Positions 1 to 56,960 of a stretch of 64,000 nucleotides of DNA are shown here, piece after piece. Below the pieces are notes generated by a model, which had not been told where the DNA came from, ran no database searches, and saw only the letters and a program-made list of their open reading frames with translations. The stretch's first letter is position 1. The number at the start of each line of letters is the position of its first letter. The stretch is from a virus. Position numbers and translations under genes: made by a program. Where the stretch lies: positions 1-64,000 of IMG/VR virus record IMGVR_UViG_3300045988_029408; one strand, 5' to 3'.

Positions 1-744
1 AAAGCTTCTAAACCTTCTTATGTAATTGGAGATTACGAAGCTCCAGTAGAAGAAAAAATTGAAATTGATTTAACTAGTGCTACCGTTGTTATCGGTCATA
101 GATACGTTTTGCGTATTGTTTATAAAGATATGTACGAAGCTCCGGGATAGTTCACTCATACTTACGAAGTAGTTGCTACTACTGAAACTGCTGATGATTT
201 GGGTAATGCACTGTTAAAGAAAATTAATAAACACACAAATCGTAGAGTAAGTGCTACATTTGCAAGTCATAAGTTAACACTTACAGCTCTTCCTAAGGAT
301 GATAATGAAGGTGTTTATTCATTGAATGAATATTCAGTAGTTTCTATGGAAGCTTCTTTATATGTTACCATTCCTGGTGCATTGCTGTCTAATGTTCCTG
401 AAGCAGTTCCTGGTGCAACTATTAAGAAAACTGCTGATAAACCGGGTAAAGGTTACTGGAAACAAGTTCGTGATATGGAAGTACGTATGTTAGGTTACAA
501 AGGTCATGTATTTACAGATGCATATCCTATTGTTGAACCGAAACGTAATATTACTGAAGGTGCGAAGTACGATTACATTACTATTGAAAATGATAACTTG
601 TATTTATCACCAGACAATCAGTATATTAAAACTACTCCGTTGACTACTGAATTGTATGTTGAAGAAACAGCTAATTTGAGTGCATCTCAGTTTGTTAAGA
701 ATCTTAAAGCATTTATCACTGGTGTTGATACTAGTGCTGCTTAA
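1..744 (+). CDS. Virion structural protein, C-terminal fragment (possibly major capsid protein; 5' end outside window)
   Basis: Frame 1 is open from base 1. One in-frame TAG at 148-150, with no TAA/TGA before TAA at 742-744. Followed by the strongest intrinsic terminator in the window. The product call is positional inference only. Confidence 0.55.
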
Positions 745-4500: not shown

Positions 4501-6574
4501 ATTCGCTAGGTTCTCTAGTTATGATCAAGCAGCTCTATGTAGTAGAAATGAGCAATATTATCCAGCTTCTCCTACTTATGGATCACAATACTTAAATGGT
4601 GATTATCAACAAGATGATTATATACCTACTAAAACTTGTAAAGGTGCTACTTTTACTTATACAGATAATGGAGTAAGCGTAACAGAAAGCATACCATATC
4701 AAGTATGTTGGACACGTAAGAAAGAAAATGGTAAATGGGGAGATTGGAAGGACGGATTCATTTGGACTAAATGGGGTAAAGACGGTCAAGATGGACAAGA
4801 CGGAGATAAAGGAGATCAGGGTGATAAGGGAGAACCAGGAACACCAGGTACTGATGCTACTACTTATATAATTACTCCTGGAGCAGCAACTATACGTCTT
4901 ACCAGAACTTCTTCTTATGAACCTAGTAGCATGACATTTAGAGCATACAAGAAAACAGGAACAGGTAGTCTGTCTTCTGTATCTGGTTACTGGGAAATAT
5001 ATGGTAGTAATAGTCACGCTCCAACAACCTCTTCAGAAGGTACTGAAGTGGGTGGTGGTTGGTCTGGTGTTTCCAATATTACATTTAATATATCTAGTTC
5101 TACTAAGTATAACTATTATACTGTAGCATTTAATCCTACTCAGTATCCTATTTATAATGGAAATCCTGTAGCAGCATCAGCAACTATTACAGTTGTAGTT
5201 GATGGTTAGGATGGACAAGATGGATCAGCTGCTAATACTCAATATACAGATATTAGATTTAGAGGAGTTTGGAATTCATCTACTAGATATTACTACGCTA
5301 CAGCATCATCAATAGGTTTAACTAACTATGAAAATCCTAGTAATGCATATGTTAGAGATTAGGTAATTTACAAAGGTGGCGTATATCTAGTTAAGTATGT
5401 TAATTCTGGCGGAGTATACGGTCAAACTCCTAGTTCTAGTTCAGCATATTGGGAATTAGTGTCTAGTGTTAGTGCCATGGCAATTAATACATTGTTAGCA
5501 GATAATGCTGTATTAGGTGCATTTCATTTCTCTAATAATGTATTTTGGTCAGGTGATGGAGGTACTTCATCTAGTGCAGCTAAACTATATATGAACAGTA
5601 GTACTGGTGAATTTAGAGCATCTAATGGTACATTTACTGGTACTGTGAACGCTAAAGCTGGTACATTTAAAGATCTATATTTTGAGAACTGTTTCACTAA
5701 AAATAGGTTTCTAAATATTACGCATCTAAATAGATCTTCATCTGATATAGATGATCCTAAATATGGTGATACATATTGTTCAAATAGTAGGTTATATTCT
5801 TATCAATCAGATGGTTGGGAGGATGCATTAGAATTATACACTAGTTCTACTAATGCAATAAGCGTATATGCTAATCCTTCTTATTCTAAAATTATACATA
5901 TGACTGGAGCAAAAGGCGGTTATACAAACAAATTGATATTACCAAGTGTTAGTGAAAATAATTATGGTACTGAAATGACTATTGTTTGTAGACAATATCC
6001 GTCAACTAGATCTATTACTGGAACAGAAGGTAATTTGCACATAGTTACATATGATAATAGAGGAAATACCTATACAGATGAAAGAACTTTAGTTTTAGCT
6101 AAAGGTAATAACGGCGGTATATTAAACGTAGTTAGTACTCCATAGGGATGGCTCATTACAAATTGTTCACACGATGGTTGCTCAGATTCTGGTGTTATTC
6201 TAAAGTTTAAAGTTTAGTATAATGGTAGTTCATATGCAGTGGTATCGTCTAGTATACACAGTATATATAACTTTGGTAATAGTAAAATTAGTTGTACTAG
6301 AAGTGGTGCAGGAGCTGTAGGAATAACTATAACTAGTGGAACTAGTTACTTTTGGGCTCCGTGTGATGTACGAGTATACGGAAGTTATAGAACTGAAGGT
6401 ATATCTGGTAGTAACGCTCATCCAATATATGCAACTTTAATATCATATAGTACTGGAGTTACTGCTTTGAACATAAGTGTGCAATTAGCAGATGATGATA
6501 CTTTAAATGATGGTAATTTCTATGTAGATATTTACGGTGGTTTTGCACAATATATAGGAAACAATCCGACTTAA
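1562..6574 (+). CDS. Tail fiber-like protein (1,670 codons) with internal repeats and a collagen-like tract
   Basis: Six frame-2 track ORFs (1790, 2303, 3134, 4931, 5459, 6239) plus the gaps were read codon by codon. 14 in-frame TAGs, no TAA/TGA until TAA 6572-6574. Repeated modules include TGADGKDG(N/E)DGN(D/S)IEF at 3443 and 4199, and KG(M/K)DGDGYEYI. Confidence 0.85.
4775..4849 (+). repeat. Collagen-like G-X-Y triplet run inside the fiber gene
   Basis: Translates as GKDGQDGQDGDKGDQGDKGEPGTPG, eight consecutive G-X-Y triplets. Confidence 0.8.
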
Positions 6575-7779: not shown

Positions 7780-8403
7780 ATGGAAGAAATTTGGAAAGAC
7801 GTAAAAGGTTTTGAAAGTTTATATATGGTTAGTAATTTAGGGAGAGTTAAAAATGTTCCACATTATGTTACTAGAAAATATTATAGACCTTCTACTGGAG
7901 ATAATATTGAAGATAAATTGTATATAAAAGAAGTGTTGTTAAATCCTAAAAAGAAGTACCATCATAAAGATAGAGGGATATATAACTATTTCTATTATGG
8001 AGTAAGTCTTCGTAAAGATGGTAAGTATTACAACAAATCAATACATCGTTTAGTGGCAGAAGCTTTCTTACCTAATCCTGACAATCTACCTTGTGTAAAC
8101 CACAAAGATGAGAACAAATTAAATAATTGTGTAGATAATTTAGAATGGTGTACTTATCAACACAATAATGTTTGGAAAAATAGATTAGCTAAAAGTTTAG
8201 AAACGTTTAATGCAAATCCTAAAAATAGAAGGAAAGTATATCAATATACAAAAGATGGGGCATTCATTAAAGAATATGAATCTGTAAAAGAAGCTACTAA
8301 AGAAATGGGTTTAAAGCACAGTAGTGGAATATATCTTAGCTGTAATCATAATAATTGCTACGCAAGAGGCTTTAAATGGTCTTTTAACTCTCCTTCCTTA
8401 TAA
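7780..8403 (+). CDS. HNH homing endonuclease (free-standing)
   Basis: N-terminal WKDVKGFESLYMVSNLGRV (NUMOD4-like), VNHKDENKLNNCVDNLEW (HNH), and a C-terminal VYQYTKDG...FKW DNA-binding repeat. No TAG codons. Stops on TAA. Confidence 0.85.
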   Translation: MEEIWKDVKGFESLYMVSNLGRVKNVPHYVTRKYYRPSTGDNIEDKLYIKEVLLNPKKKYHHKDRGIYNYFYYGVSLRKDGKYYNKSIHRLVAEAFLPNPDNLPCVNHKDENKLNNCVDNLEWCTYQHNNVWKNRLAKSLETFNANPKNRRKVYQYTKDGAFIKEYESVKEATKEMGLKHSSGIYLSCNHNNCYARGFKWSFNSPSL

Positions 8404-8807: not shown

Positions 8808-9362
8808 ATGACAAGAATAACAAGAAGCTATATAGCTCCAAATCCTAAAGAATTCGAGTATTGGGTTGATTTATCAGCAGATCCAAAAGGTAATGTAATT
8901 AAGTATTACGCCGGAGGTAGTAAATGGTTACCTTTAAACGATGATACAGATAACGATCAGAGTGCTAGAATTGCTGCACTTGAATCAGGTAAAGTAGATA
9001 AAGTAGAAGGAAAAGAACTATCTAGTAATGACTTTACTAATGCATATAAAACTAAACTAGATGGTATTGCTGCACAAGCAAATAAATATGTTTTACCAAC
9101 AGCTACAGCTGAAATTATTGGTGGAGTAAAGGTAGGAGCAAATATTTCTTATAGTAATGGTACAATTAGTCTTAGTAAAGCTAATGTGACTAGTGCATTA
9201 GGATATACACCTCCTACAGCAGATACTAAAGTAACTATAAATAATACTTTAACGAGTACTAGTACTACAGAAGCTTTAGCTGCTGCACAAGGTAAAGCTT
9301 TAAAAGATTTAATTGACGCATTAACTACAAGAGTTGCTGCATTAGAAACTCCAGCAGCTTAA
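8808..9362 (+). CDS. Short fiber-like protein (paralog of the N-terminus and one module of the next gene)
   Basis: Intact ORF without TAG. NPKEFEYWVDLS N-terminal motif and KVDKVEGK...ANKYVLP...GGVKVG...ANVTSALG module are shared with gene 9377-13342. Coiled-coil C-terminus ending in AA. Confidence 0.75.
   Translation: MTRITRSYIAPNPKEFEYWVDLSADPKGNVIKYYAGGSKWLPLNDDTDNDQSARIAALESGKVDKVEGKELSSNDFTNAYKTKLDGIAAQANKYVLPTATAEIIGGVKVGANISYSNGTISLSKANVTSALGYTPPTADTKVTINNTLTSTSTTEALAAAQGKALKDLIDALTTRVAALETPAA
8994..9203 (+). repeat. Fiber module, copy 1 (paralogous to 11087-11299)
   Basis: By-eye protein and nucleotide similarity: VDKVEGKxLSxND(F/Y)T ... ANKYVLPxATA ... GGVK(V/I)G ... (K)ANVTSALG. 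Confidence 0.6.
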
Positions 9363-9376: not shown

Positions 9377-12300
9377 ATGGTAACAAATAGGATAATATTT
9401 TTTGCAACATCTGTTCAACCTAATCCAGAAGAAATAGACTATTGGGTTGACTTATCTGATAATCCTTACGGTGGTAGCATTAAATATTTCAATGGAACCG
9501 AATGGGTAAGGCTGGCTGCCTCTGGTGGTACACCTGACCTTAACAACTACTATACTAAAACATAGATAAATAATCTACTTAATAATAAAGCAGATGTTGG
9601 AGATGTAGATAGTAAAGTAGATGATGAAGAAGTAAAAGATGTAATAAAGGATATACAATTTAATACTTCTAATCCTAATGGCATTACTATGGTAATGTTT
9701 AAGTATGATGGAAGTAATAAAACTGTTTCAATACCAGTAGCCTCTACAAGTTCTGCTGGTATCATTACATCTAAAGATTTCTTAGACTTTGTTAAGCAGC
9801 ATCAGTTATAGGAACTTCATACTGAGATGATTGATACCTTTGCTGATATACGTGCAAAGTATTAGAAAAAACTCATTGCAGGTTTAAACATTGAAATTGA
9901 TCAAGAAACTAATGTTATTAGTGCATCTGGTGATCTAGCTGTACAATGGGATAATATTACTAACAAACCAGATTTTAAACCAGTAGCTACATCTGGTGAT
10001 TATAATGACTTAATTAATAAGTTAAAACCAGGTAAAGACGTTAGTATTAGTGAAGATAATGTGATTAGTATTGCTATTGATTCAGATTCATTAGAATAGT
10101 CTTTAGCTACTTTACAAAGTAATATAGATAAAGAAGCTGCTACTGCTCGTGCTGCTGAAACTAAATTAGGCAATGATATAGCTACTGAGAAGAATAGAGC
10201 TCAATCTGCTGAATAGACTATTGGTACTAACTTACAGAATGAAATTAATAGATCTACTCAAGTAGATACTCAACATACTAATGCTATAAACAAAGAAGTA
10301 CAAGATAGAAAAGAAGCTATTGCTACAGAAGTTAGTGATAGAAATGCAGCTATCTTAGTAGAAACTAATAGGGCGAAAGCTAAAGAAGAAGAGCTCGACG
10401 GTAAGATTACTGATCATACTACTGCAACTAATGCAGCATTAGCATTAAAAGCAGACAAGTCTAATACTTATACTAAGGCACAAGTAGATGCTAAATTATC
10501 TGGTGCTTATAAAGTAAAAGGATCTAGTACGTTTGAAACTCTACCTAAAGACAACAATGTAGTCGGTGATGTATATAATATTACTAATGCGTTTAACTTA
10601 GGTGGTAAACACTATGATGCTGGTACTAATGTAGTATGGACTGAAGATGGTTGGGATGCTTTATCAGGTTCATTTGATACTACTGCTATTGAAGGTAGTA
10701 TTCAAGAAGTAGCTGATGATTTAGCTCAAGAGATACTTGATAGAACTCAAGCTGATACTACTATTAATAACAATGTATCTTCATTATCTAATAGAGTAAA
10801 AGTAAATGAAGATAAACTTACTATTATTAATGGTAATGAATCTACTACTGGTTCTATAGCTAATGCTATTAAACAGGCTAAGTCATATACAGATACAACT
10901 GTAACAGCTGAATAGACTAGAGCAGAGAAAGCAGAATAGAAACTAACTAGTGATTTAGCTAGTGAAGTAACTAGAGCTAAAGGTGCTGAGTCTGCTAATG
11001 CTACAGCTATAGCAAATGAAGTAGAAAGAGCTACTGGTGTAGAAGAGACATTGAATAGTAATATTACTCAACTGTAGACTCAAAAAGTAGATAAAGTTGA
11101 AGGTAAAGGTCTTAGTACTAATGATTATACTACTCCTGAAAAGAATAAATTAGCTGCTATTGAAGCTGAAGCTAATAAGTATGTATTACCTGCTGCTACA
11201 GCTAGTGCATTAGGTGGTGTTAAGATAGGTAGTAATATAACATTAGCAAATGGCGGTACTATTAGTATAACTAAGGCTAATGTAACTAGTGCATTAGGTG
11301 TAGATCCTACTACTACTTATGTAAAGAAAGCTGGTGATACTATGACAGGAAGTCTTTTCATTGAAACTACATCTGAAATTAATTTATATAATACTATTTC
11401 TGTACCATCTAGTAGATATGCGGTGTTGAGATTAAAAAGTGGTGATAACTATTGGGATGTTACTACAAAAGGTACTGATGGGTTGCTATTACAAAAACAA
11501 GGTGCTTCTGATGTGCAATTAAAATTAGATACATCAGGTAATGTTAGTATTCCCGGGTATTTCAAATCTACCGTAGCTACAGGTACTGCACCTATACGAG
11601 TATCTTCTACTACTCTATGTACCAACCTGAATGCAGATATGGTAGATGGTTATGGAGTTTCAAATTTTAATACTGATAGCGTATCTATTAAGCGCTCTAT
11701 AAATAGTGTAAATCAATCCAATGCCGAAAATTGGATTAAACTTTGCACTCTACCATTAACTAGTTAGATAACAACATAGGATAAAAGAGTAGTATTTGAA
11801 ATAGTTGGTGGAACTGATGTTGGTGAAAAATATGCTTATTATGCAACATTGACTGCTTCTACCAGAGTTACGGAAAATGTAGAATTGCGTATTTTGAATA
11901 GTGTGGATACTATTTCTATTGCTACGTTTATAGCTGGATATGTTATTACTTCTGATAAAGTAGAAATATGGATTAGAACTGGTAATTAGTGGGGGGCAAG
12001 CACTAATATAGTATGTAAATATGCTTCTACTAATGCTGATGACATATTAAGTAGCCCAGCTACTACATAGAGACCAAGTAATTTTGTATTAGGTAATATT
12101 AAAACACTAGATGCTCCAGATTGGTACGGTGTATCTTGGTCAGAGACATCATCTAATCCAGATTGTACCCGTATTGGTAATATGGATATGCATAGATCAT
12201 TACCTATATAGAGTATGATGAAAGGATATCTTTATTTTAAAGACGGAAATCCTTTATATAGAATGTTAAAGCTAAACGATAGTTGGACTAAATGTGAAAA

Positions 12301-13342
12301 TTATTCTGCTGGAGGATGGAGAGATGTAGATTTGCTAGAAGATAATAACATAAATGTAATGATTAAAATACCTGAATTTTGGTGGATAGATGATTATATA
12401 GAATCTACTGAAACACATAATTTAAAAATATGTCCACATGCCAAACCAGGATGGCATCACCATAAAGAAGCTTATGTGTCTGCATATGAAGGTTATATTG
12501 ATGGAAATTATTATAGATCTTCTAAAAATAAAATACCTAGTGTTAATTTCACAAGATCTACTGTAAGACCAAAAGCAAGAGCTAATGGTTTAGGAAATTC
12601 ATGGAATATATATACATATAATGAACATAGAGCCATATGTCATTTGTTCTTAGTAGAATATGCTACCAGAAATAGTCAAAAAGCAGTTAATACTGCATTA
12701 ACAGTTGAAGGATTTAGACAAGGTGGATTAGGTTCTGGTTGTACTACAGGTACAGTAACTATCAACGGAACTACAACTTACTCGTTTATTCCTACTGGAA
12801 GTTCTGATAGTTTAGGTAGTGGTTCTGGTGAAGTTACAGTAACTATACAATAGACAGATTCATCTGGCTCTAATACTACAACTACTACAAGAAAGTGTAA
12901 TAGATATAGAGGAATAGAGAATCCATTTGGGCATGTGTGGAAACACACTGACGATGTTATTAGTGTATATATTTCTGGTTACAGCGCTAGATTTTGGTAT
13001 AAGTGCGATTCTCCAGATCATTTCGGTGATTCTATCTCGAATAATAATCCGTACTATAAAAATATAGCAGCAAATGCTGTAGTTACTGGATACAAAACAA
13101 AAATAGTAACTACGTCTACGTGTGACTTTTTCGCTTTATCTTGCAACAATGGTTCAGAAACAACATACTGGTGTGACTATAATTGGGATAATACGGATGG
13201 TTCATTACATTGTTTGTTAATAGGTGGTAGCTCTGACGATGGCGGCAGAGCGGGTCTGTTCTATCTTAATTCCGGTAATGAGGTTGGTAATTCCTATGCT
13301 AATATCGGTTCTCGATTAACATATCTCCCGTGGGCGGAGTAA
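9377..13342 (+). CDS. Tail fiber / receptor-binding protein (1,321 codons) with a C-terminal DGR-diversified lectin/FGE-like domain
   Basis: Frame-2 track ORFs 9377, 11342, 12215 and 12935 plus all gaps were read codon by codon. 14 in-frame TAGs, first TAA at 13340-13342. C-terminal RYRGIENPFGHVWKHTDD ... GGSSDDGGRAGLFYLNSGNEVGNSYANIGSRL matches the usual DGR target-domain pattern. The VR lies in the last ~45 codons. Confidence 0.85.
11087..11299 (+). repeat. Fiber module, copy 2 (paralogous to 8994-9203)
   Basis: Same motif order as copy 1, inside the long fiber gene. Confidence 0.6.
13213..13313 (+). repeat. DGR variable repeat (VR)
   Basis: 101-nt alignment to 13427-13527 at a constant offset of 214. 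There are 21 mismatches, every one at a template adenine. All 60 non-A positions are identical. Confidence 0.92.
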
Positions 13343-13426: not shown

Positions 13427-13527
13427 TAAGTAAAAAAGTAGTAACTCTGACAATAGCAGCAAAGCAGGTCTATTCAATCTTAATTCCAATAATGAGGTTA
13501 GTAATTCCAATGCTAATATCAGTTCAA
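13427..13527 (+). repeat. DGR template repeat (TR)
   Basis: Non-coding copy (contains TAA in the VR-equivalent frame). A-rich, with AAT/AAC/AGC codon equivalents. Lies between the target gene and the RT. Confidence 0.92.
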
Positions 13528-13666
13528 TGAAATTGCGTATCATAATATTTTCAGTTTATCATATAATAGCCAACTACTGAGAAGGACCTTACCACTTGGT
13601 AAAAAATATAAATAATTTATTAAGGGTTAGTAGTGAAATATCGAAAGCTCTTTGTAATTTCAGACT

Positions 13667-14695
13667 ATGAAGAAATTTAAGAATTTATATTAGAAGATAA
13701 CAGATTTAGATAATATAAAGCTAGCTCATCATAATGCTAGAAAGAATAAAACTCATAGAAACGATGTAAAGAAAGTAGATGCAGATATAGAAAGATTTTG
13801 TAAGTAGATACATGATATGTTAATCAATCATACTTATAAAACTTCTGAATATTTTACTTTTAAGTTATATGAACCTAAAGAAAGAATAATATTTAAACTA
13901 CCTTACTTTCCAGATCGTATAGTACATCACGCTATTATGAACATAATGGAACCTTTGTGGATCAATTAGATGATACCTTAGACTTATAGCTGTATTAAGA
14001 AAAGAGGAATTCACAAAGTTCTTAAGTAGATATAGCATGATCTGAAAGATAGAAAGAATACTAAATACTGTCTTAAAATAGATATTAGAAAGTTTTATCC
14101 TTCAGTAGATCACGATATATTAAAATAGATAATTAGAATAAAGGTATCAGATAGAGAACTGTTATAGTTGTTAGATGAAATAATAGATTCATCAGATGGA
14201 GTGCCTATTGGTAATTACTTATCTTAGTTCTTTGCTAATCTATATCTATCTTACTTTGATCACTGGGTTAAAGAAGATAAAAACATAAAGTATTATTATA
14301 GATATGCAGATGATATAGTAATACTTTATAAAGATAAAGAGTCTTTGTAGACATTACTTAGAGATATAAAGTAGTATCTAAAAGATAATTTAAAACTATA
14401 GTTAAAGAATAATTATCAGGTATTCCCAGTAGAAAGTAGAAGTATAGATTTTGTGGGATATAAAATATATCATAATTTTACTTTAGTTAGAAAAGCATTG
14501 AAGAAAAGATACTGTAAGAAGAATGCTAAACTGAATAAAAGAAGTACTAACTATAAATATTATAAAAGAAAAATGGCTAGCTATATAGGATGGTTTAAAC
14601 ATGCTAACTGTTATTCTTTACTTACTAAAACTATTAAACATAAAGAGCTATTAGATTACCTGGATATACGTAAAGGAAATAGAACATACGAATAA
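13667..14695 (+). CDS. DGR reverse transcriptase (342 codons, 12 in-frame TAG)
   Basis: ATG 13667 to TAA 14693-14695, frame 2. Only the last 80 codons appear in the ORF track. Joined translation has PDRIVHHAIMNI, KIDIRKFYPSVDH, VPIGNYLS(TAG)FFANLYL and YYRYADDIVIL (YADD at 14303-14314). Confidence 0.9.
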
Positions 14696-14815: not shown

Positions 14816-15334
14816 ATGAACCTCGTAAAACGTATATTTGCTAACGGATACCAATCTATAATAGGTTGGTTAGGTGGACTTGCAACTATACTAGCCCCAT
14901 CAGTGCCTTTGATAGGAGTTACGTTCTTATTCATAATATTAGACTTAATCTATGGTTATAAAGTTTGCAAAAAGTTTACCGGATCTAAACATTTTGAATC
15001 TGGTAAGTTCTGGAATACTCTAGAGAAGTTAGGGTTTGCAGCTATAATGATAGCTGGTTTTACTTTTTTAGATAAGTTTATATTTATGACATATGCGGAT
15101 CTGGTGCTAGCTAAAGTTGCAGCAGGTGCTATATGTGTTGCAGAAATAATTTCATTATTAGAGTCTAGGAAAGCATTAAAACCTAATTCACTAATAACAA
15201 AACTGTTTACAAAGATAATAAAGTCTAAGGCAGAAAAATATTTAGATGTAGATATAACAGACATCTTAGAAGAACAAAATACTATTACAAATGATACCAA
15301 TACTGATAAGTCTAGCAAAAAGATTAATAAGTAA
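14816..15334 (+). CDS. Holin (Phage_holin_4_1-like multi-TM protein)
   Basis: Several hydrophobic helices. LDLIYGYKV...SGKFWNTLEKLG and CVAEIISLLES resemble the holin family 4 signature. No TAG. Stops on TAA. Confidence 0.65.
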   Translation: MNLVKRIFANGYQSIIGWLGGLATILAPSVPLIGVTFLFIILDLIYGYKVCKKFTGSKHFESGKFWNTLEKLGFAAIMIAGFTFLDKFIFMTYADLVLAKVAAGAICVAEIISLLESRKALKPNSLITKLFTKIIKSKAEKYLDVDITDILEEQNTITNDTNTDKSSKKINK

Positions 15335-15368
15335 CATTATCGGTTGGTTTAAAAGGAATTACAAAGCA

Positions 15369-15947
15369 ATGGCAGTGATTATCATTATGATTCTCGCTGC
15401 CATTTGTTTTTATTAGAATAACTAGCTAGATAAGAAGAATAGAGAAATAGATAGAGTAACTAATAACTATCTTTACTATGAATAGCTAGCAACATAGTAG
15501 AAGAATGATAATAGAGTTCTATAGCTTACTCTAGATGAATTTAAAGAAACCAAAGATAGCTTGATACAAGAAGTACATGCTACAGTAAAGAAATTAAAGA
15601 TCAAAGAGAAGGAGTTGAAATAGGTACAGATATAGGAGTAGAAAGTAGTACATGATACTACAGTAGTAGTTAGATCAACTGACTTTAAAGTGGAAATCAA
15701 ACCAAACAATTTGACATCAATCATAATAAATAAAAGAGATACGCTCCTAACACATAGTATCGACATTCGCAATACACAATCACTATTTATTCATACTAAA
15801 AAAGAATATAAGCGTAATTATAAGAATTGGTTCTAGCGACTCCTTCACTTTGATTTTAAAAAACGAACTATTTATAAGTACCAAATTGATAACAGTAACA
15901 AGTTAATCAATGTAGAAAATACTAGAATAATAGATTTATCAAAATGA
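15369..15947 (+). CDS. Spanin-like lysis accessory protein (N-terminal TM plus coiled coil)
   Basis: ATG 15369 to TGA 15945-15947, frame read codon by codon. 10 in-frame TAGs including a TAG-TAG pair. N-terminus is MAVIIIMILAAICFY. Invisible in the ORF track. Confidence 0.6.
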
Positions 15948-16579
15948 ACTTTATAAGTCGAATAATTAAATCAATTAATGCAATGAGAGAAAGACTGAAA
16001 ATAGAGCGTCATGAGGCTATGTATGGTCCACACTTCAATGAAGAATGTGCACTAAAAGCAGTCTCTAAGATGGAAAACGAAGATGGCTCTCGTGGAGAAC
16101 ATTGGAGTTTAGAAGAAACTACTTCAATCGCTAACCAGTACGGAATCAATCTGAAAGGTGAGAAATACAACAAGTATGATTGGTACGTTGCTCTCAATAT
16201 GATACGTTCCGACTATTATCGTGCAGTTGTTACTATGACAAGCAGTGATCACATTAAATACTTTGTAGAACTAGCAAAAGCCTGGTTGAATGACAAAGAT
16301 ATAGAAGAAGGAAAGATGTGGTATTACTATTGCTATATTATGTGTGATAAATTGCGCAAAGAAGCTAAGACGATGTTAATGCTTGAAGACGATGAAGATG
16401 AAGAACATGAGTATCGTTATGCTCGTGGTGGTAGAGGACGTGGAAGAGGTAGAGGAGGAAGAATGACTCGCTACGGTTATGACTATGACGAAGACGATGA
16501 ATATTTAGATCGTGAACGTGAAGAGGAAAGAATGCATAGATATGAACCTATGTATGAAAGAAGAATATCAAGATATTAA
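15944..16579 (+). CDS. Hypothetical protein with RGG box and acidic/Arg-rich tail
   Basis: Intact ORF without TAG. Contains RGGRGRGRGRGGR followed by DYDEDDEYLDREREEE. Confidence 0.8.
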   Translation: MNFISRIIKSINAMRERLKIERHEAMYGPHFNEECALKAVSKMENEDGSRGEHWSLEETTSIANQYGINLKGEKYNKYDWYVALNMIRSDYYRAVVTMTSSDHIKYFVELAKAWLNDKDIEEGKMWYYYCYIMCDKLRKEAKTMLMLEDDEDEEHEYRYARGGRGRGRGRGGRMTRYGYDYDEDDEYLDREREEERMHRYEPMYERRISRY

Positions 16580-16593
16580 TTTAATCAAAATTT

Positions 16594-17535
16594 ATGAGAA
16601 CTATGTACGAACCTGAAAAAATTTTAGTACAAAGCGCTGGTATAGATCCAGGTGTAGCTGCACTTTTGCAGAATGCAAACAAAGGTAATATGGACCCTGC
16701 TGCTCTTATGGCTATGATGAACAACGGCGGTTTCGGTGGAAACGGCGGTTGGTGGTGGATTTGGATCATCCTAATCTTCTTCTGCTGGGGTGGTTTTGGA
16801 GGTAACGGTTTTGGTAGAGGTAGTGATGATGCTAGTCGTCTTGCTTCTCAGTTGAATACCGATACTAACACAAGTCTGTTAATGCAGGCTATTCAAGGTA
16901 ACAAAGATGCTATCAGTTCTTTGTCTAATACTTTAAATTGTGATATTAATGCTGTACAGACAGCTTTGAATACTATTAATACTAGCGTAAGTCAGATTGC
17001 TTGTGATACTAAATTAGCTAGCTGTGAAGTAATTAATGCTATTACTTCTGGTAATGCTAACTTAGCTTCTCAATTGGCTAACTGCTGCTGCCAGACTCAA
17101 CGTTCAATTGACTCTGTTAATTTGAACTTGACTCAAATGAATGCAGACAATAGACTGTCTATCTGTCAGCAAACTAATACTTTGTAGAATGCAATTACTA
17201 GTGGATTCAATAACTTACTAACAGATAATGCTAACAAATTTAATGTAATTGGCGCTAAGATAGATGCACAGACTCAGATGATCAATGATAAATTCTGTCA
17301 GCTGGAAATGCGTGAAATGCAGAATAAGATTGACACATTGCGAGATGAAAAACAAGGATACCAATTATCTGCTCTTACTCAGCAATAGACTCAAAACTTA
17401 GTTAATCAGTTGCGTCCTTGTCCAGTACCTGCTTACTTAACTTGTAACCCATTCGGATGTAACGGTGGTTTGAATAGTTACGGATACGGTTATCCTTATG
17501 GATACGAAGGTGGATGCAACAGCTGTGGTTGCTGA
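16594..17535 (+). CDS. Hypothetical membrane protein (Gly/Trp-rich TM, Cys-rich C-terminus)
   Basis: ATG 16594. TAGs at 17185 and 17386 are read through to TGA 17533-17535. Contains GGWWWIWIILIFFCWGG and a ...CNPFGCNGG...GGCNSCGC tail. Confidence 0.75.
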
Positions 17536-17561
17536 TTGTTAAACTAATAATACATTGAATT

Positions 17562-17990
17562 ATGAATCCATATTTTTTACCCTATTCGCAATGGACTCCT
17601 AGAATGTTATCTAGTAGATTTCCAGTAACTAGATTAAATCGTAACGGAGTTCCTTCACTGCGTACTATATCTGTAACTACAGATACAACTGGTTCAGCAG
17701 TTATATATAATATTTGCCCTTGGCGTTGGAAACAACTTTGCAATGAAGGGTTAATGATCCTGCGAATCTCACAAGTTCCAGCTACTGGTTCAGAAACTTT
17801 TGTAGTTTCTATTAATCCTAATAGCACTCAAAATACTACTGTTACCACAACTGGTATTCCATTGATTGGCAGTACTGGAGTTTAGTTAACATCTGCTGAT
17901 GTAGTAAATGGTAATAGATTACTAGTATATTTTAATAAATGCGAAGGTATTTTCCAAGTGGTCAATCATATACCTACTACTACAGCATAA
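17562..17990 (+). CDS. Hypothetical protein
   Basis: ATG 17562. TAG 17883 is read through to TAA 17988-17990. Confidence 0.7.
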
Positions 17991-17999
17991 AATTAATAC

Positions 18000-18023
18000 A
18001 GGGCTACTGTAAAAGGTAGCCCT
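18000..18023 (+). terminator. Stem-loop (8-bp AGGGCTAC / GTAGCCCT), no T-tract
   Basis: Perfect 8-bp stem with an 8-nt loop, directly after the TAA. Confidence 0.35.
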
Positions 18024-18041
18024 ACTAAAACCAATTCAATT

Positions 18042-18620
18042 ATGTTATTTAGTCAATTAAAAATAGGAGATCACGTACACGTATTAGAAGTTCTAGGAAC
18101 GTTTAAAAAGACTACTGTTTATAGTCTTGGTTCTATTACTTAGGTTTCAAATCCTTATGATGAAGCTTTACCTCAGGGTTAGTTTCCAATACCAGGATAG
18201 AGCAGACGTAAACTAGTTGATGTGTTTATTAGCTGTAATGGAGAATCTAAGAAACTATCAGTGCCAGCTGAACGTTCAATAATTAATGATACTTCTATAG
18301 GACTTACTGTTGCTACCAATAAAGAAGAAATAGCTAATATGGTTAGATAGAACTATAATGAGTTCAAAGCTAAAAAAGAAGCAGCAAGTAAGTATGATGA
18401 AGAAATGGAGAAGTGTAAAGACATTTTAGATCAACTAGAAGCACAGGTAGAAGCTCCTATAATAACAAATACTATTGACAATAGTAAAGAAATAAATGAT
18501 TTAAAAAATGATGTTGCTGATATTAGGAAGATGATAGAAGATGCTAAGAAGATGTTTATGGGAGGGTTCCCAAAACCACCAATGCCACCTATGCCTAATG
18601 TACCAGCTCCAATGAAATAA
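18042..18620 (+). CDS. Hypothetical protein with Pro/Met-rich C-terminus
   Basis: ATG 18042. 4 in-frame TAGs. Joins track ORF 18405-18620. Stops on TAA. Confidence 0.7.
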
Positions 18621-18883: not shown

Positions 18884-19549
18884 ATGACATTAAATGAGCT
18901 CATTGATGATATTCTATTAGAAGCTAGAAACAACTAGATTACTGAGAGTGAAAAGCTCAGTAGATACTAGATAGAATTGTGGATTAAAACATATCGAGCT
19001 TACCTATTAAAACAGAAGTTAGATAAGGGAGAGCAATTAGACTAGATCTTCTATTAGACTATACGCATGCATTTGGATAAAATAGAAGAAGATCCAGGTC
19101 ATGCAGAATACCAAGGAGATAAAGAATTACCGACTTTACTTGGTACTAAACTTACTACTTCAGTAATAACAGTAAAAGATGCCTATGGTAATATTATTCA
19201 ATTAGGTTCTGAAACTAAGATGAAATTCTAGAAATATAGAAAGTATACCTGTAAAGATTATATTGCATATGTTAAAGGTAATAGAATATATGTAGAAGGT
19301 GATGCTAACCAACTAGAATATATTGATGTAGAAATAATTGCTGAAGATCCTACTGAAGACAAACTATGCTATGATCCAGATAAGGATGAATATCCTTTAC
19401 CAGCTTATATGTGGGGTACAGTTAAGTAGTTAATCTTTACTAAGGATTTCTTAACTATGAGATAGCAAGTATCTGATACTACTAATGATAGTAAAGATGA
19501 TACTTAGAATGTAATGAATTAGAATATTAATAGAAGTATAAGACGATGA
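18884..19549 (+). CDS. Hypothetical virion-module protein
   Basis: ATG 18884 to TGA 19547-19549, read codon by codon. 9 in-frame TAGs. Absent from the ORF track. Confidence 0.7.
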
Positions 19550-23900: not shown

Positions 23901-25126
23901 CTACTGGCAATGCTCAAACTGGAGAGGCTAATATATATTTTTTAACAGAACCTGGTGCACTAAATACAAACTATACTCAAGGAAAACCTATGTATACATA
24001 TAATTCAGCATATTCTAGTACTAATACCGCTAAAGGTTATATTCAAAGTTCTATATACGCTGAAGATAACGTAAAGAGTATGAATCGTATTACGTGTTCT
24101 GAAGTAAAGTCTATTAACGAATAGACAGATAGTTGGACTAAATTTAAATTTGCTAATTATTTAGATACAGATAGTACATATGGACCTGTTACTAATTTAA
24201 AAGTGTTTAAAAACAGATTGTATTTCTTTTAGGATAGTTCTGTGGGTATAGCTTCTGTTAATGACCGATCATTAATTAATGATAATAATGCTGGAGAACT
24301 AGTATTAGGTACAGGTGGAATATTAACAAGATATGATTACTTAGTTACACAAAATGGTAGTAGTATTATAAATGATAAAAGTATTACTAATTCAGAAACA
24401 ACTTTATATTGGCACGATTTTGATAAAAATGTAATATGTTCGCTAGGTAACGGATTCAATGAATTATCTAAGGTAAAACAAGTATAGACATATTTAAATA
24501 GATTACCAGATTCAGCTAGAAGAAATCCAGTATCATTTTATGATAAGAAATATAATGAAGTGTGGTTTAGAATATATGACAGATGTTTAATATTTAATGA
24601 ACAATTAAATGTATTTACTTCTTTCTATACTCACAATCCAAACTGGTTCTTCCCATTCTCTACTAGATTAATTACTATCAAAGATAATAATTGTTATTAC
24701 TTGCATAATATGTATTATGTAGATGATAGTAAAGAGAAAGAAGAACGTATATCTTATATAAGATTTGTAGTGAATAAAGATATTGCATACACAAAGGTAT
24801 TTGATAATCAATGGTTTTCAGCTGAATTTGAAGATGTTGGAGATGAGGAAAAACCTACTTTAATAACTGATATACATTTTGAAACTAAGACACAAGTTAC
24901 TGAACCAATAGATTATAATCAGATAGAAGTTAGAGAGGATAATTACAGATTTGCAATAAGTAGAGAAAAACAAGATAAACCAGATTTACAACAATAGACT
25001 AATATGTCTTACGCTGGAAGAATGAGAGGAAAATATTTGATTTGCAATTATACTTTTGATTGCAACGATAATAAAGAATTTAAGCTTCCGTATATTAAAA
25101 CAACTTATAGATATTCAATGTTATAA
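20936..25126 (+). CDS. Large tail-associated structural protein (1,396 codons)
   Basis: ATG 20936 (10-nt overlap with the upstream gene). Frame-2 track ORFs 21563, 22082, 22955, 23561, 24242 and 24560 are joined across 22 TAGs. TAA at 25124-25126. Tail assignment rests on size and position only. Confidence 0.8.
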
Positions 25127-25127
25127 T

Positions 25128-27524
25128 ATGAAAAATAAGAAATTAAAAAGAGTTCCTCAATATGCTTTCGGCGCTGATGCTATTTCAAATTGGGGAAACA
25201 TGAGTGGAGTAGATAAAGCAAATGTAGTTACACAAGGAGTTGGAGCTATAGGTAGTATGATAGGTAACGCTACTAGTGGATAGAAACCTACAGCAGCTGG
25301 TGTAATAGGTGGAATAGGATCTGGAGCTGCAATGGGTGCTTCTATTGGTGGACCTTGGGGAGCAGTAATAGGTGGAGCTATTGGCGGTATTACTTCAAGT
25401 ATAGGTTCTGGTGGATCTGTTAATGAACAGACTGGTGAGTATGAATTGCCATCAGGAATAGCTGGTCTATTTGGTCATAGTAAAAGTTATATACGTAATA
25501 AGGCTGGTAGAATTAAAAATGGTATTCAAGCTAGACAAATGTCTGAACAAGTAGCAGCTGATTACTACCAAGAAAATGGATATAATGAATTAAGTTTATC
25601 TAAAGGTGGAGTAGTACCATCTACTATGGCTTACTTAGATGATGGTGAGATGTTACGAACACCCGATGGAACTATAGTATCTATACCAGAAGAAGGTAAG
25701 CCCACAGATTCTAATTTATTAAACGTACCTGTTGGAACTCAAGTGTTAAGTGATAAATTAAAAGTTCCAGGAACAAATAAAACTTTTGCCGAAATGGGTA
25801 AGAAATTAATGAAAAAGAGTAATAAGAAAGTTAATGGCATTTACGCAGAGAATAGTCAAATGCTTAATGAAAGAAACAATCAATTAGCTTATTAGAGTTT
25901 ACTAGAATAGCAGGAGTCTTTAAAGAATAAAAAGACAGGTAAGAAACAAGAGATACCTGCATATGAAGAAGGTACCCCTGGTGTATCTGGTAGAAAGAAA
26001 GTAAAACTAAAATATATATACGATCCTATGTTGGGAGGTTTTGGTTATATTGATCCTAATACTGGTGGCTTTGTTGAAATGAACAACGTTCGTAATGATC
26101 TTCTGCCTGATTCTATGTGGGTTCAAAATTACGATAATTCTGAACAAGCTGAACAAGCTGAACAACAATCTTCCGTAGAACAGAATACTGTTCCTAAGAA
26201 TACACTTAGAGCAAAGAAACGTGACTTTCTACGATTACCAGCTAAACAAGGTAAAGCGAATACTCCAACTATATTTAATGACCACGCTTTTGAATTAGCT
26301 GGAACTAAATATCAAATAGGTGATACTTTTGAATATAAAGGAAAGCAGTACAAAGTTATTGGGAACAATGAAGCTGTACCTGTTAACTAGAATACAATAA
26401 ATCCTAAAGATGCGAGAGATGGGGTTGATTGGAATTTGTTTAGAGACATATTTACTCAAGGTGATCCTAGAATTATAGGTCCGGCTGGAGCAGGAAGATA
26501 TCCTTCTAATACTTAGAGTAGAAGAGTAGGCAGATTATCTGATCCAAACAATCCTTACTTTATAGGAAATATGTACATGAATGGTAATTATGGTAATCTT
26601 ACTGCTGGTGAACTGTTTACTTCTTTCAATCCTGAATTTAATACACCTGCTGTAGGTATAATAGGCACTGATACTTCTAGTTCTTCAGTTCCTGTGGCAG
26701 TTCAAGATACTACAGTACCACAAACTATATCTCGTAGTACCACTGGTACTAAAAAAGGTGCGGTACAAACAAGTACGTAGCAACCTGTTCAAGAATAGGT
26801 CAACGCTGGACCGATACAACCTTTTAGCAATAGCCGTCCATCTTTAACTGAATTGGCTTCTAAACCGAATAAAATTTTACCAAAGGTTAATGTTGGCAGA
26901 CCATTTACATATAATCCTTCTACAGACAATGGATTAAGTAATGGGCTAGACATGTCTTCTTTATATTCTACAGTAGCTACTTTGGCTCCTCTATTTGATA
27001 GAGAACGTGCGGAAAAAGTTGATACTTATACATACAATCCTGTATACGGTCCTACTGAATATAACATAGATCCTTTGTTGGAACAAATCACTATGAGTGA
27101 CAGAATTTCTAGATATAATATGGCTAATATCAATCCTAATACTGGAGCTAATATGGCATTTGGTTTATAGTCAGCTGTTAATAGAAATAAAGCTATAGCT
27201 AACGCATATGCTACTAAAAACAATGCTGAAAATCAAATGGCATTCAATAATGCACAAATAGCTAATCAGTGGGGACAGCAATATTCTGATGCTAGACATA
27301 CTGCTGCCACTGAATACGCCCAGAATAAAGCAAATGCTAGAAATATAAATAGAAGGAATTTTGCTTCGGCTTTGAACAATTGGGGAGCTTCATTGAGAGA
27401 TAAAAAACAAACAAGTATGGATATGGCAGCTTTGGAGATGTTGCAACCTATGCTTAATTATGGTACAGAAGATAATGTACTTAACAGAGTTAATAAAATA
27501 TTAAATAGAGTAAAAAATGGTTAA
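25128..27524 (+). CDS. Virion internal/ejection-type protein with glycine-zipper segment (798 codons)
   Basis: ATG 25128. Frame-0 ORFs 25332, 26028, 26571, 26853 and 27237 are joined across 8 TAGs. TAA at 27522-27524. Contains GASIGGPWGAVIGGAIGGITSSIGSGG. Confidence 0.75.
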
Positions 27525-49617: not shown

Positions 49618-50148
49618 TTATAAAAAAGATAAAGGCGGATTAATGTCCGCCTTTTTTATTGGTATATTGTTTAAGTTTAAAATAGCTTCACTTAGTTTTG
49701 GTTTAGTGGAGTATGAGAAATTGTATCCATTAAAGAAGTGAGTAATTATTTGTCTAGCTTTACTACTGATTGGTCCCCAATGGTCTAATATTTTATTTTG
49801 AGTTTGTACACTTACTTTGGTATATTCTCCATTTAATAAGTGTGTAAAGTCTTTTTTTAGTTTTGGAGGTATAGTAAATGCTATGACTTTGTAAGCATTT
49901 CCGTTTATGAATTCTGTATATTCAGCATATGAATTTTTATTGTTCTTAAATCTCACTTTAAGTTCATTAGGGAAAGCTCCTCTGTCATAGCATATAATAA
50001 TTTTATTTTCCCATTCGGGTTTATTGGCGTCAGCTATATAAATACCTAATGTAGTTTTATTTAGCCATTTTAAACTGTTTTCTTCTTCTATTAGTGGTAG
50101 TAAGAATAGTTTTGTTGCTATGTCTAACCACAACTTTTTGTTATTCAT
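49618..50148 (-). CDS. Hypothetical protein
   Basis: Intact 176-aa ORF. TAA stop. Last gene of the minus-strand operon. Confidence 0.7.
   Translation of the reverse strand: MNNKKLWLDIATKLFLLPLIEEENSLKWLNKTTLGIYIADANKPEWENKIIICYDRGAFPNELKVRFKNNKNSYAEYTEFINGNAYKVIAFTIPPKLKKDFTHLLNGEYTKVSVQTQNKILDHWGPISSKARQIITHFFNGYNFSYSTKPKLSEAILNLNNIPIKKADINPPLSFL
49631..49657. terminator. Bidirectional intrinsic terminator at the convergent late/early junction
   Basis: AAAGGCGGA / TCCGCCTTT stem with a 6-nt loop, flanked by an A-run and a T-run. Overlaps the last codons of minus-strand gene 49618-50148. Confidence 0.7.
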
Positions 50149-50153
50149 AACAT

Positions 50154-51155
50154 TTACAGTTCTTCTGTTCCATCACCTTCGTAATACTCAAGTGTATGGT
50201 CCCATTGATCTGTACTGATATGTTCTGAGATTCTTCGGAGAGCTTCTGATATTGAAGCGATCTTTTCATTGAGAGTAGTATCATTTTTCATATTGAATAC
50301 TCTAATCTCATTGTTAGCATCTTTACCTATTGCAATAATATATGCTTCAAAATCATATTCTTCAGAATTAAGATTTAATACTTCTTGCATATACCATTGG
50401 ATTGCTAATCCATAATAAGCAATTTGCCTATAATAATCGTATTCTTCTACTGAATGTTTAAAATTGTATACATTTACAGTAGTTTTTAAGTCAATAAGAA
50501 TTATCTTCTTATTGACATGATCAAAGCACACTCTATCTAATAGAGATTTACATTTGATATTGTGAAACTTTTCTACTTCCCAATTAATATGGAACTCATT
50601 ATGAGTTTCAAAAGTAGATGGTAAATTAAACAACAGCTCATTCGCTTTTTTATGATTCTGAATATTCTCTTTTATCTTTTTGAGCATTTGTAAATCGGCA
50701 AAGCTAATTATCTTTTTGTTTTCATCTACTTTACTTAGATATTCTAAGTAATCTTGATAAATCATAATAAGACCTTCAGCTTCTTCAATACATTTCTCAT
50801 CAGATTTCTTATTACTATAAGCTTTTTTATAAGCAGATAGTTTAAGCTTATCTTGAGATTCTAATGGATTTACTTGCATAAGTCTATGATACTCATCTAA
50901 TAAATCCTTTTGCTGTTTTACTTTAGGTGTTGCAAAATCAAGAATAATATAATCTTTCCAGAATTCTTCTGGTTGAAGTAAATATTCATGAATCATAGTT
51001 CCTTTTTCAAGGAAATTATAATCTAATTTTGCTACTTTTCCTTCTTTGTAATCTTTTAGACCTTTTGGTCCATTTTTAAGAAAATATCCAATATCACTAT
51101 TAGAGTAACGAGACATATCCTCATAGTAAGGAGTATCAATTACCATCTTGTTCAT
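50154..51155 (-). CDS. PD-(D/E)xK family exonuclease (RecE/ExoVIII-like)
   Basis: LDRVCFD ... IILIDLKTT ... YYRQIAYY motif order is typical of PDDEXK exonucleases. Confidence 0.6.
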   Translation of the reverse strand: MNKMVIDTPYYEDMSRYSNSDIGYFLKNGPKGLKDYKEGKVAKLDYNFLEKGTMIHEYLLQPEEFWKDYIILDFATPKVKQQKDLLDEYHRLMQVNPLESQDKLKLSAYKKAYSNKKSDEKCIEEAEGLIMIYQDYLEYLSKVDENKKIISFADLQMLKKIKENIQNHKKANELLFNLPSTFETHNEFHINWEVEKFHNIKCKSLLDRVCFDHVNKKIILIDLKTTVNVYNFKHSVEEYDYYRQIAYYGLAIQWYMQEVLNLNSEEYDFEAYIIAIGKDANNEIRVFNMKNDTTLNEKIASISEALRRISEHISTDQWDHTLEYYEGDGTEEL

Positions 51156-51157
51156 AC

Positions 51158-51973
51158 TTAATCCTCCATGTCGCTAATTACAGCTGACTCAGGAACTTCT
51201 GCTGAAGTATCCCAAACTAATTCATCTTCTTTATCTTGTTGTAGTTCAACTTCTTTAAATGTCTTAAGCCAATCCGCTACATTATTATTGTATGCTTGAC
51301 TAATAAGTTTATCTAAGAATGCTTGTTCTACTTGTTTCTTTTCTTTTTCTGTCATAATATCTAACACTACAAATTTATAATTCTTTTTAAAACTATAACA
51401 ACTATTCAATCTAGAACAATTGTATCTTCCAGAATTTATATCACTAGATCCATCATGCCAATGCCCATATAAATGATATTTACTCTTTCCAAAGGAGAAA
51501 ACATCTAGAGCTTCATTACAAAATGGATTATCATGTGTTAGTAGTATATCACATTGTGGTATATCTTCGTAAGTATCAAATCTACTAAATGCCCATCTGT
51601 CCTCTTGAAATTCAATTGGTTTAATCCAAGGAGATCCGTAGAATTTAACACCTTCATATATATACATTTCATCTATAAGAAATACTAATTTACCTTTAGA
51701 TAAAATTTGCATATGATCTTTAAAAGAACCCCATTCATTTAATTTATACTTATATTCTAAGTAAAAATCATGATTACCTGGTATAATAATTACCTTCTTA
51801 CAAGGTAATTTATCTACCCACTTTATGAATTTTGTTTCCCACCAATGTTTAGATGCTTCAATATTTCTTTGAGTATTTAATGTTACTACATCACCGCATA
51901 TACATAGTACATCACACTCAGGTATATTCTCAACGAGATTACCATGTATATCACTTATACCGCATATTTTCAT
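51158..51973 (-). CDS. Calcineurin-like metallophosphoesterase
   Basis: Motifs SDIHGN, CGDVV, PGNHD and GHWHDG occur in canonical order. Confidence 0.8.
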   Translation of the reverse strand: MKICGISDIHGNLVENIPECDVLCICGDVVTLNTQRNIEASKHWWETKFIKWVDKLPCKKVIIIPGNHDFYLEYKYKLNEWGSFKDHMQILSKGKLVFLIDEMYIYEGVKFYGSPWIKPIEFQEDRWAFSRFDTYEDIPQCDILLTHDNPFCNEALDVFSFGKSKYHLYGHWHDGSSDINSGRYNCSRLNSCYSFKKNYKFVVLDIMTEKEKKQVEQAFLDKLISQAYNNNVADWLKTFKEVELQQDKEDELVWDTSAEVPESAVISDMED

Positions 51974-52019
51974 GTTTATATAAGTTAAAAGGCTAGAATA
52001 TATCTAGCCTTATTTGTTT

Positions 52020-52895: not shown

Positions 52896-52907
52896 AATCT
52901 GAAAATT

Positions 52908-53287
52908 TAAGATTTTAATTTGTTGATTAACTCATCAACTTGTTTTTTATTCTTTACTAAATAAAATTTAGTATCTGGTTCATTCAAGCTTAAATAATAC
53001 TTGAATAGTTTTTCTCTGTTTGCCCAAGAATCTGTAGCAAATCCTTTGCATTCTATAACAAAACCATCTCCTACAAAATCTGGTAAATAAGTAATAGCTC
53101 TAACTGTAGAGTTATTATATACAAACTTAGGAAGTAAAGTATATCTATGCTGTTCATATTCAGCTGATATATCTGCTTCCTTTAGTTTCTAATATGTATA
53201 AGCTTCTAATTTAGATCGAAATACTATTCCATCTATTTCTTGTTTAGTAGCATTACGCACTTTCTTGTTTAAGACTTGTTTTAGCAT
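52908..53287 (-). pseudogene. DUF1064-like nuclease gene with an in-frame TAG and a 1-nt frame disruption
   Basis: Frame A (ATG at 53287) gives MLKQVLNKKVRNATKQEIDGIVFRSKLEAYTY(TAG)KLKEADISAD. The fold continues in another frame from 53159 as YEQHRYTLLPKF...ITYLPDFVGDGFVIECKGFATDSWANREKLF to TAA 52908-52910. Exactly one base appears to be missing at 53159-53161. Confidence 0.6.
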
Positions 53288-54546: not shown

Positions 54547-54560
54547 TCTGTTTTAGTTTG

Positions 54561-54696: not shown

Positions 54697-54709
54697 GTTG
54701 AAACTATTC

Positions 54710-56880: not shown

Positions 56881-56900
56881 GATGATTTATTTTAATGATT

Positions 56901-56934: not shown

Positions 56935-56960
56935 ATTTATTAATAATGATCTACTTTATA

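Follow-up and report, generated by a model that had tools for sequence, protein, structure and literature searches.

In-frame TAG codons in the reverse transcriptase gene of a diversity-generating retroelement from a code-15 crAss-like phage: a well-quantified example of late-gene recoding

Why would a phage write nearly every glutamine codon of the enzyme that diversifies its own tail protein as TAG, which is a stop codon under the standard code? The question is raised by the reverse transcriptase (RT) gene of a diversity-generating retroelement (DGR) found in 64,000 nucleotides of virus DNA, positions 1 to 64,000 of the IMG/VR record IMGVR_UViG_3300045988_029408; this whole stretch is called here the window. 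A previous reading of the window, made from the letters alone and referred to below as the original prediction, proposed that the RT is locked behind an alternative code in which TAG means Gln and that the timing of hypermutation is coupled in this way to the code switch. The gene is the RT of an active DGR without Avd, located between its tail-protein target and a lysis cassette, in the late module of a phage that uses genetic code 15. Its TAG enrichment is real relative to its neighbours but lineage-specific, and the finding is a strong, well-quantified example of the known recoding of late genes, not a demonstrated hypermutation timer or a new mechanism. The explanation that we prefer, with a probability of about 60%, is a relaxed avoidance of TAG in a low-abundance and very AT-rich late gene, of which any attenuation of RT synthesis would be a by-product.

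A recount of the RT gene reproduced exactly the codon numbers given earlier: 342 codons with 12 TAG, one CAG and no CAA. The in-frame TAGs are codons 9, 47, 101, 105, 121, 123, 154, 167, 187, 228, 236 and 245, the sole CAG is codon 251, and the frame has no CAA and no TAA or TGA ahead of its stop. As stated before, the Gln of the diagnostic motif (codon 187, the Q of IGNYLSQFFANLYL) is encoded by TAG, and the open reading frame (ORF) closes after eight codons under the standard code, with the first TAG at codon 9, which makes the RT product impossible in that code. The ORF list generated with table 11 contains two in-frame pieces of the gene, of 50 aa (13817-13969) and 80 aa (14453-14695). The RT frame shows no TAA or TGA compared to 22 and 42 in the other two frames, and the probability of such an open frame by chance, estimated from base composition, is about 6e-13. 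TAG is found 12 times in the RT frame, and 13 and 15 times in the two non-coding frames. The frame lacks TAA and TGA and has TAG as frequently as the off-frames, therefore it has been kept open against two stops with indifference to the third. It follows directly from the sequence that RT synthesis depends on TAG suppression, as does that of 20 of the 24 late genes, when the late module is defined as the 24 non-nested plus-strand ORFs from 130 to 49574.

With TAG translated as Gln, the RT protein matches Pfam RVT_1 (9e-21) and the reverse transcriptase family PHROG 1423 (1e-123). Its best PDB match is the bRT of Bordetella phage BPP-1 (8ub7, E 3e-42), with residues 2-320 aligned to residues 3-317, and in this alignment the SQ motif IGNYLSQ of the RT falls on IGSLTSQ of bRT, Q to Q. 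The end-to-end alignment with the Bordetella phage RT confirms the expectation that a full-length DGR RT is encoded once TAG is taken as Gln.

The rest of the window agrees with a code in which TAG is sense. ORFs of at least 100 aa sum to 10,438 aa with table 11, 21,995 aa with TAA and TGA as the only stops and 11,537 aa with TGA as a sense codon. The use of TAG is restricted to late genes on the plus strand, and minus-strand ORFs (49618-63916) show four TAG in about 4,600 codons. The window belongs to an Afonbuvirus-like, code-15 (TAG = Gln) crAss-like phage of the Suoliviridae, and proteomics of crAss-like phages supports the reading of TAG as Gln (PMC9523058). Relatives were collected from one IMG/VR scan (80 loci) and two GenBank phage records, 82 in all, and a complete RT ORF was obtained from 80 of them. 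In 46 close relatives (about 89-99% aa identity) the full frame is open when TAA and TGA are the only stops, with 342 or 343 codons and 8 to 13 TAG; across the relatives the number of TAGs in the RT goes from 3 to 13 and their positions shift. TAG alternates with CAA or CAG in the clade at RT codons 101, 121, 123, 154, 187, 228 and 251. At codon 187, all seven standard-code relatives have CAA or CAG and the 27 distant recoded ones have CAA or TAG, and the motif Q column is Gln, encoded by CAA, CAG or TAG, in all 34 distant relatives. This alternation of the three codons, together with the conserved motif Q, rules out that TAG is read as a residue other than Gln.

No tRNA of any kind, suppressor tRNA included, was found by ARAGORN or Rfam in the 64-kb window, the corresponding genome region being located outside it. 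However, the nearest annotated genome, cr6_1 (Afonbuvirus faecalis, Suoliviridae, NC_055894.1; L083 in our set), contains a tRNA with anticodon CUA at 25904-25977 (-), and the anticodon arm of this tRNA is present on 13 IMG/VR contigs, seven of which carry close relatives of the RT. In relative L085, a tRNA-CUA (5152-5227, +) is preceded by 12 co-directional TAG-free ORFs and followed by a TAG-free homing-endonuclease ORF and then by TerL, which has 17 TAG. Since TAG-free ORFs precede the tRNA and TerL follows, the tRNA-CUA of the relatives marks the boundary between standard-code and recoded genes. In these relatives, the acceptor stem of the tRNA-CUA starts with the pairs U1-A72, G2-C71 and G3-C70.

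The variation of the repeats bears on whether this RT is made. The 96-nt template repeat (TR) and variable repeat (VR) of the window show 17 mismatches, all 17 at TR adenines. Among the 44 genomes with a readable VR (the window and 43 close relatives), 32 have an identical TR, and these 32 genomes show 32 different VRs, with 804 of the 809 TR/VR mismatches at TR adenines. The VR varies among them in 29 of 37 TR-adenine columns compared to 5 of 59 non-adenine columns. Diversification of the VR on an invariant TR shows that the DGR is active in this population and, therefore, that the TAG-laden RT is translated. Variable sites of the RT gene in 45 distinct clade genes are distributed 48/37/124 over the first, second and third codon positions, and the third-position excess points to purifying selection. 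Two observations concern the repeats themselves. Columns 3 and 6 (13216-13223 of the VR and 13430-13437 of the TR), both TR adenines, show the same difference in all 32 genomes, therefore active mutagenesis seems to start a few bases inside the repeat. Furthermore, when read in the target frame the TR begins with TAA and holds AAA codons, and unmutated or A-to-T copies would bring real stops into the target gene.

The late module contains 229 TAG, 423 CAA and 114 CAG in 16,026 codons, which gives a TAG share of Gln codons of 0.30. TAG density is 3.51 per 100 codons in the RT gene and 1.43 in the module, in line with the contrast drawn before. The TAG share of Gln codons is 12/13 (0.92) in the RT, whereas the remaining genes of the module together have 217/753 (Fisher p = 4e-6), and the gene-by-gene codon comparison thus finds the RT enriched in TAG over its neighbours. 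Among the 24 late genes, the RT ranks first by TAG share and third by TAG density, behind the LysB-like gene (4.59 per 100 codons, the highest in the window) and a virion protein gene at 18884-19549 (4.07). The idea of an RT locked behind the code holds in that the gene needs TAG decoding; the lock is not special to the RT, as most late genes (20 of 24) have in-frame TAG, and its density is higher in lysis and virion genes. The same is seen in relatives, where a 349- to 392-aa ORF near the portal gene (L085 11070-12248, +; L095 11846-12895, +) has 14-16 TAG among 19-22 Gln codons, with 16 in the 392-aa form; it exceeds the RT in number of TAGs and is similar to it in TAG share. In cr6_1, the number of TAG among Gln codons is 5/6 in the endolysin, 10/14 in the LysB-like gene, 10/14 in the RT and 0/14 in the major capsid protein.

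Several observations concern Gln codon choice in other genes. The major capsid gene of cr6_1 (16949-18415, -) prefers CAG (11/14), unlike nearly all other genes, and the window ORF 16594-17535 (+), whose product is Gln/Asn-rich with a Cys/Gly-rich tail, has 13 CAG, 10 CAA and two TAG; these two CAG-rich genes suggest that Gln codon choice tracks expression level. Genes of the late module similar to HNH or GIY-YIG homing endonucleases are TAG-free, with 0/2 Gln codons in the window gene 7780-8403 (+), and 0/8 and 0/7 in the cr6_1 genes 15875-16849 and 24959-25888 (-). The base which follows TAG in the late genes (130-49574) is A in 98 of 229 cases (43%), compared to 154 of 536 (29%) after CAA or CAG; 37% of all late-gene codons start with A, and in the RT gene A follows seven of the 12 TAGs. 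A 3' A favours amber suppression in E. coli.

To compare TAG shares with a neutral expectation, we used a rough model of the chain TAG-CAG-CAA whose inputs are two ratios, T:C at two-fold Y-ending codons and A:G at AAR/GAR codons. The pooled late module has an expected TAG share of 0.41 and an observed share of 0.30, which means that, taken together, its genes use TAG less than expected. The RT gene has the lowest GC of the module (0.254); the share of T among its Y-ending codons is 0.83, and that of G among its AAR/GAR codons is 0.34. Its own codon bias predicts a TAG share of 0.63, and 0.92 is observed. Across the late genes, the TAG share of a gene is correlated with the G share of its AAR/GAR codons (rho 0.62, p 0.014) and is lower in longer genes, and no significant link was found with the C-ending share used as a proxy of expression (rho -0.27). 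Polymorphic columns in the clade are 4/12 for Gln and 51/134 for other two-fold codons, and extra conservation of TAG sites over other synonymous sites was looked for in the clade and not found; the exchange between TAG and CAG in the clade looks like ordinary synonymous change.

Recoded RTs form five clusters at 80% aa identity. Cluster L001, which includes the window, contains 47 genomes with a TAG share of 0.81 in the RT and 0.40 in the flanks; cluster L082 is a single genome, cr53_1, with 0.80 and 0.22; cluster L046 contains 22 genomes with 0.46 and 0.26; cluster L057 contains three genomes with 0.38 and 0.33; and cluster L058 is one genome with 0.25 and 0.28. TAG preference of the RT is thus strong in two clusters, moderate in one and absent in two (Wilcoxon p = 0.06). 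The GC of the RT is about 7 points below that of its flanks in every recoded cluster.

The 12 TAGs of the RT are Gln codons, predicted to be read by the phage tRNA-CUA, which is found in close relatives and lies outside this window. Large structural genes of the window, as well as the major capsid gene of cr6_1, under-use TAG, and according to the explanation based on relaxed avoidance the RT gene would be free of such avoidance. If the RT is needed in small amounts only, as we assume, changes from CAG to TAG and from AAG or GAG to TAG could drift up unopposed. Each TAG is presumably read in competition with the host release factor, and the attenuation would be multiplicative, with a yield of full-length RT that scales as the suppression efficiency raised to the 12th power, which would hold the RT at a low level and confine it to the phase rich in suppressor. 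Selection of the TAG load as a hypermutation timer is not required by the evidence, and we treat the adaptive timing put forward in the original prediction as a hypothesis.

A number of results weigh against relaxed avoidance. In the 46 close relatives, the TAG share of the RT is 0.57-0.93 compared to 0.31-0.54 in its flanks, and it is higher in the RT in 46 out of 46, although these belong to one clade and are not independent. The probability of at least 12 TAG in 13 Gln codons is 2e-4 if the pooled expectation is taken as reference and 5e-6 with the observed share of the module; the excess over the RT's own codon bias is marginal (0.021, a value that is not corrected for the 24 genes). Moreover, the bias model is rough, and the G-ending share of the RT that it takes as input could be shaped by the same force. 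In cr53_1 the RT has 8/10 TAG and five of its TAG positions are absent from the window clade; because these positions are not shared, TAG accumulated independently in the two lineages. Finally, eight of the 12 TAGs of the window RT fall where the majority of distant relatives encode Asp, Glu, Lys, Ser or Gly, therefore these TAGs arose by amino acid changes which landed on TAG and never on CAA.

Some of these results also support an adaptive gate, in which the amber load would have been selected so that RT output depends steeply on the suppressor tRNA and adenine mutagenesis is late, rare and coupled to the code switch. To the independent accumulation in cr53_1, the gains at formerly non-Gln sites and the excess over the flanks in the whole clade, this proposal adds the highest TAG share of the late genes, a first TAG (codon 9) that is fixed in the clade, and its fit with the framework of Borges et al. 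(bioRxiv 10.1101/2021.08.26.457843), in which recoded stops block late and lysis proteins until the code switch, so that recoding acts as a timing device, and a small number of families favour TAG over CAA/CAG. By the criterion of that work, the RT family of this clade would be classed with the preferentially recoded ones. However, a single TAG suffices for gating: one TAG already locks the gene, and twelve add attenuation or a steeper threshold and not more lock. Furthermore, there is no enrichment in two of the five recoded RT clusters, the excess over the gene's own codon bias is marginal, and TAG/CAG sites turn over like neutral synonymous sites. The RT is also within the late co-directional module, therefore transcription alone probably already makes it late. 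On balance, we consider the adaptive gate possible but doubtful.

A related proposal, which we regard as unlikely, is that the amber load is a selected governor of dosage. TAG would compete with host release factor 1 and the load would behave as an ultrasensitive switch, with DGR mutagenesis near zero until the suppressor tRNA is abundant and capped at a low level afterwards, and lineages could tune their diversification rate by gain or loss of TAGs.

In a third proposal, the TAGs of the RT would serve the timing of lysis. Under the standard code, about 1 kb of untranslated mRNA would silence the downstream TAG-free holin and lysis genes until suppression, by polarity or by loss of translational coupling. 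The gene order is consistent with this, since the RT is followed by the holin (0 TAG) and the LysB-like gene (10 TAG), and no terminator-like site was found in the 120-nt gap between RT and holin. In addition, Borges et al. saw genes of the lysis neighbourhood preferentially recoded, and suggested that several strongly recoded genes on one transcript may amplify the block. However, the holin has only two Gln codons, so its lack of TAG is not significant, and in relatives that lack a DGR the tail gene is immediately followed by the same lysis cassette. A scan for promoters and terminators around the RT and holin genes was uninformative, with 25 found and 21.9 expected from shuffles, and the scan does not model Bacteroidales promoters. 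We consider a role in lysis timing very improbable.

Lastly, a decayed RT or fossil DGR in which the TAGs are true stops could be suspected from the table-11 ORF that ends at codon 9 and from a window without the tRNA, but it is refuted by the open frame in 46 out of 46 close relatives, the third-position variation and the diversified VRs, as well as by an RT frame free of TAA and TGA, which are common out of frame, and by the tRNA-CUA of the relatives.

The cassette has the order target with VR, TR, RT-17 RNA and RT, then the holin and the LysB-like regulator, and its features are listed in Table 1.

Table 1. Position and description of the DGR cassette features and of the adjacent lysis genes in the window.
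Feature	Coordinates	Strand	Description or basis
DGR target gene (tail protein)	9377..13342	+	1321 aa, 14 in-frame TAG, VR at 3' end; ORF with TAA/TGA-only stops
Variable repeat (VR)	13216..13311	+	Last ~40 target codons; 96-nt direct repeat of TR
Template repeat (TR)	13430..13525	+	Non-coding, 37 adenines in 96 nt; direct repeat with VR
Structured RNA, Rfam RT-17 (RF03020)	13585..13667	+	Fills TR-RT gap, ends at RT start codon; cmscan
DGR reverse transcriptase gene	13667..14695	+	342 codons, 12 TAG (Gln), 1 CAG, 0 CAA, TAA stop
Holin gene	14816..15334	+	Directly 3' of RT, 0 TAG; Pfam Phage_holin_4_1 6e-5; cr6_1 'holin family protein'
LysB-like lysis regulatory gene	15291..15947	+	10 TAG/14 Gln codons (codon counts); cr6_1 'lysis regulatory protein-like protein'

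The C-terminal 420 aa of the target match PHROG 5302 'tail protein' (7e-77), and its orthologue is annotated as a tail protein in cr6_1 and cr53_1, with the note 'similar to sulfatase, major tropism determinant' in the latter. A distance of 31 nt separates the end of the VR from the stop of the target gene. A C-type-lectin fold was searched for in the target by sequence searches only, and no Pfam match and no PDB sequence match were obtained. Upstream of the target, the small ORF 8808-9362 repeats two mid-target segments, 9000-9110 versus 11093-11203 (73%) and 9159-9202 versus 11255-11298 (86%), which suggests partial duplication or module exchange among tail proteins. No Avd was found: there is no ORF between target and RT, and the neighbouring small ORFs show no Avd match in Pfam or PHROGs. 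Downstream of the RT, the holin gene, with its two Gln codons, overlaps the LysB-like gene by 44 nt; the genes on either side of it, RT and LysB-like, are the two with the strongest TAG bias.

The RT-17 element was detected with 44.5 bits (gathering score 40.4, E 2.7e-5). An RT-17 element occupies the equivalent place in seven of ten scanned relatives, standard-code ones included (L081 2178-2260, L063 3319-3410, L061 5912-5991, L076 5916-6000, L055 5918-6007, L066 5919-6007 and L031 5919-6001). In the same gap of BPP-1, Weinberg et al. described the RT-10 motif and speculated that other RT motifs serve other DGRs (PMC5737381), and RT-17 is probably the counterpart of this RT-10/spacer RNA. Its overlap with the translation start of the RT could affect RT expression. 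The 89%-identity relative L031 shows a second RT-17 copy at 268-353 (+), about 5.6 kb upstream of its RT, which hints at a second TR or at a remnant cassette.

Standard-code pipelines had been expected to miss this DGR entirely. Fragmentation of the RT does occur, but the gene is not missed altogether, since the cr6_1 orthologue is full length in RefSeq and the exact protein is public. The exact full-length RT protein of the window is found in public collections, in a 90% identity cluster of 6,758 members, which indicates that the phage clade is very common. JGI/IMG and NCBI nr also contain its 40- and 50-aa pieces called with table 11, under the names 'hypothetical protein' or 'MatK/TrnK amino terminal region'; to part of the 50-aa entries IMG gave the name 'RNA-directed DNA polymerase'. 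The table-11 RT pieces gave no match in Pfam. As table-11 calling fragments the DGR, gut-virome surveys of DGRs made without code 15 will under-count those of crAss-like phages, as has been noted before for the Zeta group. The presence of amber codons in DGR RTs of crAss-like phages is already published, as is the recoding of late and lysis genes. In the searchable literature, we found no statement that a DGR RT ranks among the most TAG-preferring genes of a recoded phage, and no proposal that such preference couples hypermutation to the code switch. Should the amber load indeed control how much RT is made or when, the phage would have a simple and evolvable dial on the mutation rate of its own receptor-binding protein, and the proposed function of phage stop-codon recoding would extend beyond lysis control.

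Compared to known systems, the closest is cr6_1, whose genome shows 89% nt identity with the window over 3.9 kb, from the 3' end of the tail gene through the RT and holin to the LysB-like gene. Its RT, gp25 (YP_010112722.1), also has 342 codons, with 10 in-frame TAG at the same positions and the same gene order. It differs in having 10 TAG, one CAA and three CAG, instead of the 12 TAG, no CAA and one CAG of the window, and it is labelled 'Intron reverse transcriptase' in RefSeq and not DGR RT. The N-terminal part of the cr6_1 target tail gene is not alignable with that of the window.

The DGR of BPP-1 (bRT, PDB 8ub7; target mtd) shares with the window the IGxxxSQ motif, the adenine-only TR/VR mismatches and a tail receptor-binding gene with the VR in its 3' end. 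In contrast, no Avd was found in the window, and BPP-1 is a temperate phage that uses the standard code, whereas the window belongs to a crAss-like phage. Furthermore, unlike BPP-1, no TR/VR homology exists 3' of the variable part in the window, and thus no IMH-like shared block is seen.

DGRs in crAss-like phages have been described earlier (PMC7290462, PMC11054128). Those of Zeta crAss-like phages target tail fibre proteins, mostly without Avd, and their RTs have the GxxxSQ motif (PMC12386605), as in the window. However, they belong to the Zeta group and the window to Suoliviridae/Delta, and that paper neither quantifies TAG preference nor proposes a timing role. The RT of the crAssphage LMMB DGR (MT006214.1; PMC7290462) is 63.6% similar to that of the window at the DNA level over about 900 nt, although this phage belongs to the Alpha group, AlphacrAssvirinae. 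Finally, Borges et al. (bioRxiv 10.1101/2021.08.26.457843) applied the same test used here, TAG versus CAA/CAG for Gln. Their preferentially recoded families are an amidase, a spanin, a tail tube and one of unknown function, RT and DGR never being mentioned, and lysis genes are TAG-rich both there and in the window.

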